A stretch of 64,000 nt of DNA from the NCBI RefSeq assembly GCF_013167455.1, contig NZ_CP038328.1. The stretch is one strand, 5' to 3'. Of this stretch, positions 24,001-27,000 are shown piece by piece (the first letter of the stretch is position 1; each line of letters starts with the position of its first letter). Source of the stretch: Escherichia coli O157:H7 (GTDB lineage: Bacteria > Pseudomonadota > Gammaproteobacteria > Enterobacterales > Enterobacteriaceae). The position numbers are program-made.

Positions 24001-27000
24001 CCCGTACAAAACAACTTCGCAAGGCCAAAAAGGCGGATGTGCTGGCCATTGCCAGGGCGTGGGGGATCAGTGGTGAGGCCGAGCTGGCCGTCATGCAGGC
24101 TATCGCTGAAAAGCCGGGAGCGTTACGCGTTCTGACACATACGCTTAACCAGGCGTGGCTCACCGCCAGCGGTGAAGGCGCGGCGCTGACAGAAAAACAT
24201 ATTAATGCGGCCTTTAAAGAGGTTTATACCAACCCTGAATTACTCTCACAGGTGTGATTATGGCGGTATTTAATATTCCTGATATTTACGGACGCTTTTA
24301 CCTGGTTAATTTCGATAACGTGAAGGTGATTTCACTGGCCGAAAATAAAGAATGTGGCGATTTACTTTTTGAATTTAATGACCGCACACGAATGGTGATA
24401 TCTGCCGGACTTGATCGAGAAGGTGCGACAGACGTTTACAGCGGAATATGCCGTTCTGTTGGTGCGAAACAAGTCAGCTAAATGAGGTGTTATATGAATA
24501 TGCAATCCTGCGGTAACAAAATGAATTTATTCGACTCCCTGAACAGCGCGCGCCGTCTGACCGAACTTGCCGGTGCGGTACTGGAACGCAGTAAGCGCTA
24601 TCCGCAACGTTTTGCACTGAAAACCACGCCGCCGGTAGGCAACGTGCAGGGAACCGGTGAAATTGAAATCACCATACAGACCAACGGCCTGCGCCGCCGT
24701 GTGAAGGCCACCCGCATCAGCGGCTGCACGGTTTACTGGGAGGTGTGAGGTGAAAAAAAATCTCATTGCATGGGCGTGGTCGAGTGGTCTTATTGAGTTT
24801 GGTTACGTCCTGCCGGAAGGTGCATTGCCGATAGTTGCCGGAAAGCCTGCCACGGTACGGCATGTGATTGAGGTTATGGCGCGTCATGGACGTGATGAAC
24901 AGGAGCAGTTACTGGTTCCGGGGATACCGGAAGCGGTGACGGAGGAAGAAGCCTTTAATGCCATGATTCGGTTCTGCCGTGAGGTCAGACGCCGGGTCAG
25001 TTATCCAAACAGAACGAGGACCAGAGGATGAGTAAAGTCGTACGCATTATTTTCGAATACAAGGAGCACGTTATCCATAAAAACGCTGATGGAACAGTGC
25101 GCATGGGGGTAAGTCTGGACATACGTTCAACCGGGATAAAGCAGAAAGGTGATGGACCCGCCATGATTTTTGGGGTGGTTATGCTCGCGGAAAGCAGAGA
25201 CTTTGCTGAACTTGTGGCAATGAAAGCCAGTGCGCTCATGAAAGATATGAGCATGCGTTCCGGGGTTATTAAAGGTAATGAATTTAATCAGCAGGGGTAA
25301 TTCCATGAGCAAAGTACGCGTTATTTTTGAATTTAAGCATGTTTCGCATGACGAAAAACCGGCAGGCAATGACTGTGTTGAAGTGCATGAAAAGATTGGT
25401 GTGGATGTAAAAACAGAACGTGATACGAATAACAGGCCGACGTCACTCTGTGACGTTTATGCAAGTATTCTCCAGTATCACAGTCCTGAAATTATTCAGT
25501 TTCTCTCAGCGGAATTTCAGGCATCTGTACAGGCTTTTGGGGCGGATGCCATCATTAAACGCCACCGCGTGCATAAAGCATCAGGCACACTGCAATAAGG
25601 AAAAACAAAATGGCAAAACGCGTTACAAAATTAAAGGCCGCAGCAGAGGCGGCACCGCAGACCCGTGAAGAGGTCAGCCGCGATATCCGCACCCTGGGCG
25701 ATATTCAGCGAGAGGCGCTGCGCCTGGAAACAGCGATGAATGATGAAGTGGCAGAAATCACCGCCCGTTATACGCCGCAGATTGAAAACCTTAAAAAAGA
25801 AATCAAAGTGCTTTTTAAGGGGATTCAGGACTGGTGCAAAACCAACCGTGATGAGCTGACGAACGGCGGCAAAACCAAAACTGCCAATCTGACCACCGGA
25901 ACGGTGTCATGGCGACTGGGGAATCCATCATGCAGCGTCAGTCGTGATGTGGAAGGTGTGATTGAAATGCTGCGCCGTATGGGCCTTGAGCGTTTTATCC
26001 GCACGAAAGAGGAAGTGAACAAGGAAGCGGTCCTGGCGGAGCCGGATGCGGTGAAAGGGATTGCCGGTATTAAGGTGAATAAAGGCGCTGAAAGTTTTTA
26101 TGTCGAGCCTTTTGAACAGGACGCCGGACTGAATAAATAACACCGCATTAATCAATTAAATATCACTTCGTTTTAATTATGGCGCTCGCGTCAGGGGACT
26201 GCCTGCGCCTGTAAACTGAAAATAAGGAACAGGATATATGGCATATTTTTATTTCAAATTAGACCGTGTGCAGACAAATAAATATTTCACCAAATATCAA
26301 CAGACTGTTTTACCGCTACGCAACAGTATTCTTCGGGCATTACTGAAAAATACAGGCGCTGCCGGATTGCGCTTAAAGCCGTTTGCCATGGACGTAATCA
26401 GTGAGTTTTATTTTTCTGGTGCTCTGCCTGCGGGCTGGCGTAAGCGCGATGATGTGGCTTTTGTCGGGGACGGACCGTGCTTTATTGCCAGACCTGATGA
26501 GTCATGCCCTGAAGGACCGGCGATTGCCGCAATGATTGAAGCCGCTGAACGCGAGTTAAGAAAGCGTCCTGATTTCCTTGTCTGGCTCTGTGAAAAGCTG
26601 GGGGTAATGAGAATCCCCTCCATGTTTAACATGGACTCCTGGTGGACCCCGTCGCTCTCCCGTGATGCCCTGTGCGTGGTGTTTAAAGTAGGCGCTTATG
26701 GCAGGGAAATAAAAGGGGGTATTCCTGAAGAATGCCAGGAGATTAAACATTCTGAATATGTGGCGCTGACGGAGGAATAATTCATGATTGATGCAAAAGT
26801 GCTTGAAGGGGTTAAAAACTGGCTGAGTATTTACGGGCGTCTGACCTGCGGCATTCTGGCTGAAAAAATGAATATGCCGCCATCCTCGATGGTTTATTTT
26901 CTGCGTGATGCGGTCGATGCCGGGGTGCTGACGGAATGTAACGGTTTTTATGATATTCCGCGTCCCCGCCCGGTGCAGCCGGTTCGTCGCAAATGCAGCC

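Follow-up and report, generated by a model that had tools for sequence, protein, structure and literature searches.

In the modular, mosaic model of phage genomes, the accessory slots of temperate phages swap alternative alleles at conserved gene boundaries. The closest described counterpart of the genes considered here is gp7 of phage Mu (formerly E6; AAF01086.1; phrog_10252), an early gene for a protein of 87 amino acids (aa) in the operon segment between kil and gam. The Mu segment is known as the 'semi-essential early' region, is variable among Mu-like phages and holds replication-modulating functions (PMC4553209), and an intact Mu-like prophage, Sp18, is described for Escherichia coli O157 Sakai (PMC2669165). 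Here we analysed two adjacent open reading frames (ORFs), ORF90 and ORF97, in a stretch of 64,000 nucleotides (nt) from E. coli O157:H7 (contig NZ_CP038328.1 of assembly GCF_013167455.1), which as a whole is called the window. The region around the pair is the early operon of a Mu-like prophage of the Sp18 type. We favour, with some reserve, the joint reading that this is a real pair of gp7-like genes, that two long-diverged family members stand here side by side, and that they have an accessory, host-binding role early in phage development. The features on which the argument relies are the following:

25028..25300, + strand: ORF90, early gene, 90 aa, phrog_4107; the upstream, lineage-specific member of the proposed gp7-like superfamily
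25305..25598, + strand: ORF97, early gene, 97 aa, phrog_2230; in the slot directly upstream of gam
25028..25081, + strand: copy 1 of the common N-terminal segment, ORF90 codons 1-18, MSKVVRIIFEYKEHVIHK; predicted first beta-strand
25305..25352, + strand: copy 2 of the common N-terminal segment, ORF97 codons 1-16, MSKVRVIFEFKHVSHD
25610..26140, + strand: gam, host-nuclease inhibitor Gam, Pfam PF07352 (Phage_Mu_Gam) E 1.5e-41; anchor of the survey described below

Both ORFs of about 90 aa, reported in a preliminary description of this DNA, are present on the + strand at these positions, and gene order and the match of gam agree with their proposed location immediately upstream of gam in a Mu-like early operon. 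The product of ORF90 begins with MSKVVRIIFEYKEHVIHK and corresponds to WP_000049432.1 in RefSeq, a hypothetical protein (phrog_4107, E 1.1e-61), and that of ORF97 begins with MSKVRVIFEFKHVSHDEK and corresponds to WP_000049304.1 (phrog_2230, E 1.3e-40). An upstream in-frame ATG at 25278 would lengthen ORF97; the MSK start is the one used by RefSeq/PGAP and by all distant homologues. ORF90 and ORF97 lie on the same strand with a spacer of 4 nt, and gam starts 12 nt downstream of ORF97. They are real, co-oriented and tightly packed protein-coding genes under purifying selection, which is more relaxed than in their neighbours: the ratio of nonsynonymous to synonymous polymorphism (pN/pS) is 0.34 for ORF90 and 0.47 for ORF97, and 0.13-0.17 for gam, kil and orf93. 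That one or both could be non-functional, either spurious or decaying pseudogenes of a domesticated prophage, is hardly credible. Frameshifted, truncated and fused variants do exist in public assemblies (P0036, P0053, P0061, P0062), and in one genome an IS66 insertion abuts ORF90. However, intact length is kept across hundreds of genomes, the pN/pS of both genes is well below 1, homologues are retained across six enterobacterial genera, and the predicted structure of ORF97 is confident.

The near-identical N-termini noted before were recovered exactly. BLASTP of the pair aligned residues 1-17 of ORF90 with residues 1-15 of ORF97 only, with 12/17 identical residues and two gaps of one residue (E 9e-4 in a single comparison). 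At the DNA level, 26-28 of the first 33 aligned nt are identical, and no relationship is seen between the sequences that precede the two ATGs; the N-terminal coding segments contain a DNA repeat (D3) of 24 nt at 83%. Such a short match could be due to chance or convergence, a translation-favoured MSK start followed by a generic beta-strand in otherwise unrelated proteins. The lack of any pairwise match past residue 17 fits this explanation, as do the 5' coding regions, which are AT-rich and unstructured (z +1.27 and -0.56) as expected around efficient start sites. Profile comparisons, however, speak strongly against it. Family alignments were built first from close relatives and then with remote ORF97 relatives from an exhaustive HMMER search of 1.84 billion representatives. 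With shallow profiles, hhalign of the ORF90 and ORF97 families gave E 1e-5 over 33 columns; addition of Salmonella and Serratia homologues extended the alignment to 74 columns (E 1.3e-5), and addition of a second ORF97 allele class resulted in E 3e-7 and a probability of 93%, again over 74 columns. The hhalign score of 40.6 compares with a column-shuffle null of 11.2 +/- 2.3 (maximum 18.8). When the first 12, 17 or 23 residues were deleted, the score was still ~20 vs a null of 10 +/- 1.9 (maximum 17.3), a value reached by 0/100 shuffles. Further, bridging sequences (see below) match the hidden Markov models (HMMs) of both families, and the order of predicted secondary-structure elements is the same. 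The origin of the match by chance or convergence is thus very improbable and effectively refuted. ORF90 and ORF97 are homologous beyond the N-terminus: the profile homology of 70-74 columns persists without it, and the remainder of the two proteins is not unrelated, as had initially been considered. Their bodies are only ~8-9% identical in the profile-guided alignment.

The AF2 model of ORF97, with a predicted local distance difference test score (pLDDT) of 84, shows a beta-hairpin (residues 4-21/24-39, 18 residues per strand) followed by helices at residues 48-58 and 60-77. A search of BFVD with this model gave no match. The low-confidence model of ORF90 (pLDDT 55) contains strands 4-18 and 24-38 and a helix 57-73, and the first helix is not formed; its hairpin and last helix are in the register of ORF97. 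Family-wide conservation is mainly seen at positions of the hydrophobic core and in a G-P motif preceding helix 1. The near-identical N-termini would then be the most constrained element of the family, the first strand of the long beta-hairpin (consensus M-x-K-V-I-F-E-F).

Word-indexed searches and a first scan of IMG/VR retrieved close E. coli relatives only (at least 68% and at least 80% identity), and the ORF90 alignment stayed shallow. A survey anchored on gam added 80 further Mu-like loci from IMG/VR (84 in all), in which every ORF up to 1.8 kb upstream of gam was scanned with the HMMs of the ORF90, ORF97 and Mu gp7 families. Many of these loci encode one protein of 78-100 aa with an M-x-K-V-I-F-E-F-type N-terminus, which matches the ORF97 HMM. 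Three of the proteins bridge the families: L119 matches the ORF90 HMM at 4e-7 and the ORF97 HMM at 3e-10, L093 matches the same two HMMs at 1e-4 and 4e-16, and L101 matches the Mu gp7 HMM at 2e-7 and the ORF97 HMM at 1e-4. A diverse profile of 16 family members, none of them from the Sp18-type lineage, detected ORF97 (5.5e-18, residues 3-85), ORF90 (7.7e-6, residues 5-74) and Mu gp7 (2e-3) over nearly the full length. In hhalign against this profile, the ORF90 family reached E 5.9e-7 and the Mu gp7 family E 8.4e-8 over 76 columns. The curated PHROG HMMs cross-match in a like manner, phrog_2230 with 18/21 family members and phrog_4107 and phrog_10252 with 3 each. Because of the profile matches, the bridging proteins and the cross-matches of PHROG HMMs, ORF90 (phrog_4107), ORF97 (phrog_2230) and Mu gp7/E6 (phrog_10252) constitute one superfamily of early proteins of 78-100 aa, which was not recognised before. 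In PHROGs, where ORF97 and ORF90 are full-length, high-scoring members of phrog_2230 and phrog_4107, these and phrog_10252 are kept as three separate families.

The link to Mu gp7 holds through intermediates from the gam-anchored survey only. Direct hhalign of the Mu gp7 family was not significant with the ORF97 family (E 0.09) or the ORF90 family (E 0.17), nor was the PHROG cross-match of Mu gp7 with the window proteins (E 0.009). Via the intermediates the profile-level homology is colinear, with L101/P0168 matching both HMMs. Mu gp7 is also alike in size and in its position between kil and gam, and its N-terminal strand (MAKVIIEIKN vs MSKVRVIFEFK in the window) is of the same type. Mu has one copy, with gp8 and gp9 located between gp7 and gam, whereas Sp18-type prophages have two copies. 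Members were found in E. coli, Salmonella, Serratia, Edwardsiella, Kluyvera and Citrobacter, and all are annotated as hypothetical. Sequence searches of Pfam, NCBIfam and PDB yielded no credible match to the superfamily, and the family profile matches no solved structure. In the literature we found no paper naming these accessions or PHROGs, or giving Mu gp7-like genes a function.

In the family-wide alignment (A7), most members including Mu gp7 end with a histidine (..KH, ..IH, ..CH, ..TH), which is absent from ORF97 (..TLQ), ORF90 (..QQG) and the Salmonella L119/L077 clade (..VN). It may have a function in the protein or may follow from constraint on the nucleotides where the next gene joins.

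In the comparison with other Mu-like early regions, the extra copy proved to be specific to one lineage. Two members are present only in Sp18-type loci (20/21), and the other loci with a match have one, save two with an apparently split gene. ORF90 was found only in E. coli, with at least 73% identity, and ORF97 always follows it directly. Complete E. coli genomes contain ORF90 at 270 places and ORF97 at 273, and both occur together in 227-231/5426 of them. The pair is nearly fixed in the Sp18-type lineage. The prophage region, present in ~230 of the 5426 genomes, is 100% identical to prophages in genomes of Shiga-toxin-producing E. coli (STEC) and O157, for example NZ_AP026099; of its ~270 copies in E. 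coli, one is located on a plasmid instead of the chromosome, and some genomes contain up to four copies.

Elsewhere, in Salmonella, Serratia and other Mu-like loci, there is one member, and 9-20 nt separate its end from the downstream gam. In Salmonella it also immediately precedes a DUF3164 gene standing in for gam. In Mu-type phages other genes intervene, and the distance from the member to the downstream gam is 328-770 nt (754 nt for Mu gp7 itself); in ~30/84 gam loci the 1.8 kb upstream of gam contained no detectable member. The loci with the replacement are Salmonella Mu-like prophages (L004, L005, L009, L010), in which a gene for a DUF3164 protein of 212 aa (PF11363; ~5303-5941) occupies the gam position, and the flanking gp7-like gene and the homologues of DUF5420, gp11 and gp12 are kept.

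How the two members came to stand side by side was addressed with a neighbour-joining (NJ) tree of ~63 body columns and 200 bootstraps. The ORF90 body grouped with the Salmonella L119/L077 sub-clade in 153/200 bootstraps and with ORF97 in 2/200. Its identity to the L119/L077 clade is 17-23%, with the highest BLOSUM62 scores (51-78), and to ORF97 it is 8%, with the lowest score (14). Thus, ORF90 and ORF97 do not appear to be each other's closest relatives. The ORF97 body groups with the single-copy genes directly upstream of gam in Salmonella and Serratia, to which it is 26-32% identical where the Gam proteins are 67-84% identical. The grouping of ORF90 with L119/L077 is moderate evidence given the short alignment and long branches, and suggests that two diverged members were stacked by recombination in a mosaic region, or descend from an old duplication, and that ORF90 would not be a recent in-situ duplicate. 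Only the first ~12 codons seem to be 'local'.

Alternatively, the gene upstream of gam could have been duplicated recently in tandem in an ancestor of the Sp18 type, with very fast divergence of the upstream copy and retention of the N-terminal strand. We regard this as rather unlikely, although it accounts for several observations. The genes are adjacent, in the same orientation and homologous over 74 columns, the extra copy is restricted to the Sp18-type lineage, and ORF90 is always directly upstream of ORF97. ORF90 also retains the surroundings of a single-copy gene. The ATGA overlap with orf93 recurs in the Salmonella loci L004 and L006, there between the orf93 homologue and the only family member. 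In one Sp18-type locus (L065; Gam 98% identical) a single ORF97-type gene is located directly behind the flank that precedes ORF90 elsewhere. The family evolves fast, as the above identities of ORF97 bodies and Gam indicate. What stands against a recent duplication is that the body of ORF90 is the least similar to ORF97 and the most similar to the L119/L077 clade, with the corresponding bootstraps, and that the within-family pN/pS of 0.34 gives no sign of a runaway divergence continuing today. In summary, the local duplication assumed in the preliminary description is supported as paralogy, by homology past the N-terminus, adjacency and a lineage-specific copy, but a recent duplicate-and-diverge event is not favoured, since the bodies group apart. 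With respect to L065, a simple deletion by recombination between the N-terminal repeats was also considered and rejected: it would leave an ORF90-type first codon block, but the gene is ORF97-type from codon 2 onward and the flank is ~12% diverged.

Several points weigh against the reading of two long-diverged members with a host-binding role. The first ~12 residues of ORF90 are closest to the co-resident ORF97 (BLOSUM62 27-30 vs 4-13 for most other clades), and the codons of identical residues match in 8/11 cases vs 4.8 expected (P = 0.04), as a local origin predicts; both points equally favour a recent duplication. The sub-clade placement relies on ~63 columns at 8-23% identity in a long-branch NJ tree, and a long-branch artefact or kept ancestral motifs (STG...DGP...FG) could mimic the affinity to L119/L077. 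The exhaustive HMMER search was seeded with ORF97 only, and ORF90-type genes outside E. coli may be missed. Further, the structure model of ORF90 with its pLDDT of 55 is unreliable, and for the proposed binding of a host or competitor protein, no characterised protein, structure or anti-defence family was found to resemble the pair.

The distribution of diversity within the pair points to exchange of gene cassettes. In 28 distinct loci, nucleotide diversity is 0.002-0.04 at both gene starts vs 0.15-0.21 in the bodies, and sliding-window analysis revealed two troughs:

25265..25339, + strand: low-diversity junction from the 3' end of ORF90 across the spacer of 4 nt to the 5' end of ORF97
24998-25057: second diversity trough, at the ORF90 start

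In ORF97, the synonymous polymorphism (pS) is 0.03 in codons 1-11 vs ~0.3 in the body. Codons 1-12 of ORF90 show strong constraint at the protein level (pN 0.017, pN/pS 0.10). Alleles of the two genes assort independently. The second ORF97 allele class in E. coli (L014, L022, L028, L031, L032, L046, L047, L049) has ~60% protein identity to the first; the first 30 nt of both classes are essentially identical, with hardly any variation in the E. coli loci as a whole, and their C-terminal ends are similar. One variant (P0046) is an intragenic recombinant with the N-terminal half of allele B and the C-terminal half of allele A. In addition, the loci differ in whether they contain orf93 and a gene like Mu gp8. 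Variable bodies with conserved starts and junctions, independent assortment, a recombinant allele and presence or absence of neighbours are all features of mosaic accessory slots. The pair differs from them in that two neighbouring slots hold genes of one family with a common 5' coding segment, which is not a general feature. The common N-terminal coding segments seem to coincide with the conserved junctions where cassettes exchange. Thus, in addition to constraint on the first strand, homogenisation of conserved 5' junctions at sites of allele exchange may account for the near-identical N-termini.

An RNA-level or regulatory cause of the conserved 5' segments was considered and rejected. An Rfam scan gave no match, promoter and terminator matches inside the segment were not in excess over shuffled controls, and no significant folding was predicted at the gene starts (z -0.56 at the 25265..25339 junction and +1.27 at the other start). 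Since the kil-to-gam segment has no internal promoter, terminator or Rfam signal, its genes belong to one transcription unit.

The products could be accessory proteins, soluble and cytoplasmic, that combine a conserved hydrophobic scaffold (the beta-hairpin and two helices) with variable surfaces. Most likely their action would be stoichiometric, through binding to a protein of the host or of a competing phage early during lytic development, and they would probably dimerise through the hairpin. Two diverged copies may then provide two binding specificities. The small early anti-defence and host-takeover proteins of phages are comparable as a functional class, being small, encoded in early operons and non-essential regions, fast-evolving, patchily distributed and subject to paralogous expansion. 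However, sequence searches with ORF90 and ORF97 and a structure search with the ORF97 model revealed no similarity to any characterised anti-defence protein. An anti-defence role of the pair, as suggested before because duplicate-and-diverge pairs are common among such proteins, is plausible from circumstantial features only, namely expression at an early stage, a location in a mosaic, variable region, and the relaxed constraint. A function as DNA mimic was also considered and found unlikely, because charge is not conserved across the family and the isoelectric points (4.9-9.5) show no consistent acidity.

The adjacency to gam raises the question of a functional partnership, in which the proteins would serve phage replication or transposition, or help Gam to protect DNA ends. 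In many loci a member ends 9-20 nt upstream of gam, suggesting translational coupling, and the genes lie in the semi-essential early region, to which replication-modulating functions are attributed in Mu (PMC4553209). We nevertheless judge this explanation to be unlikely. Co-occurrence and adjacency with gam are not obligate, and an obligatory partnership is disfavoured by position: the slot is kept where the DUF3164 gene replaces gam, other genes lie between the member and gam in Mu and many relatives, and some gam loci have no detectable member in the scanned distance. Moreover, the proteins are more variable than would be expected of a housekeeping partner of a conserved protein, with alleles that are 60% identical within E. 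coli and pN/pS values 2-3 times that of gam.

At a more speculative level, and with a similarly low degree of confidence, the gp7-like slot might be a hypervariable, allele-swapping locus for counter-defence or host takeover common to enterobacterial Mu-like phages. The conserved N-terminal strand and 5' junction would then serve as scaffold and recombination handle, and Sp18-type prophages would have stacked two specificities, possibly forming heterodimers via the common hairpin, against a host immunity or repair factor that occurs in two variants.

The remaining genes of the early operon are arranged in the following order:

21163-23253, + strand: transposase A, first gene of the early operon
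23325-24257, + strand: B, after transposase A
between B and kil, + strand: orf73, an ORF of 73 aa
24494..24748, + strand: Kil-like gene, phrog_2679 E 7.8e-46; left edge of the variable kil-to-gam segment
24750..25031, + strand: orf93, phrog_1518; upstream neighbour, its stop overlaps the ORF90 start (ATGA)
downstream of gam, + strand: homologues of Mu gp11 and gp12

The Kil-like product has 33% identity with Kil (gp5) of Mu across 39 aa (E 9e-5), and Gam of the window is 57% identical to Mu Gam. The family of orf93, phrog_1518, is labelled 'host nuclease inhibitor', a name used in some RefSeq records (WP_097518136.1). Its product has no Pfam or NCBIfam match and no similarity to Gam, and the label may have been carried over from gam next to it. 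Deletion of orf93 in several E. coli loci leaves a 3' remnant of ~66 nt, which reads into ORF90 and gives an ORF of 116-123 aa. In some Sp18-type loci (L021, L023, L036, L047; ~2290-2709) an extra gene for 139 aa, which is absent from the window, is located between the 73-aa ORF and kil; its length and N-terminal motif are, by eye, similar to those of Mu gp8. The gene orf183 (27836-28387), located after the gp12 homologue, encodes a helix-turn-helix protein of 183 aa that is a relative of Mu gp9, with 31% identity in 101 aligned positions (E 6e-9); its first ~56 residues also match a separate family, phrog_38779. As Mu gp9 is located immediately upstream of gam, this gene has moved relative to gam between phage types.

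Among the individual variants of the pair, P0036 (E. coli, 67 aa) is an in-frame deletion that joins residues 1-49 of ORF90 to the last 18 of ORF97 at a common 'FG' microhomology. In L053 (NZ_AP045822.1, locus 2001-4244), the IS66-family element ISEc22 directly follows a 3'-altered ORF90, and neither ORF97 nor gam was found beyond it within the 4.2-kb locus. An open stretch of 82 codons in an alternative frame (25420-25668, + strand) overlaps the second half of ORF97 and extends into the beginning of gam. It is entered by three ORF97 variants from public assemblies (P0053, P0061, P0062; 103 aa), each frameshifted independently, and is probably a chance open frame combined with frameshift or assembly errors.

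Fast-evolving accessory early genes in a mosaic phage region are a known sort of feature, and the present result is one of annotation and evolution rather than a surprise. It is relevant in several respects. The classical Mu early gene gp7 (E6) gains a family context, and three PHROG families are united in one fast-evolving superfamily in Mu-like prophages of at least six enterobacterial genera, of which the Sp18-type prophages of STEC, including O157, alone carry two members. If it is true that the family is a module for host interaction or counter-defence, its natural allele series together with the two-copy lineage would be a ready comparative system.

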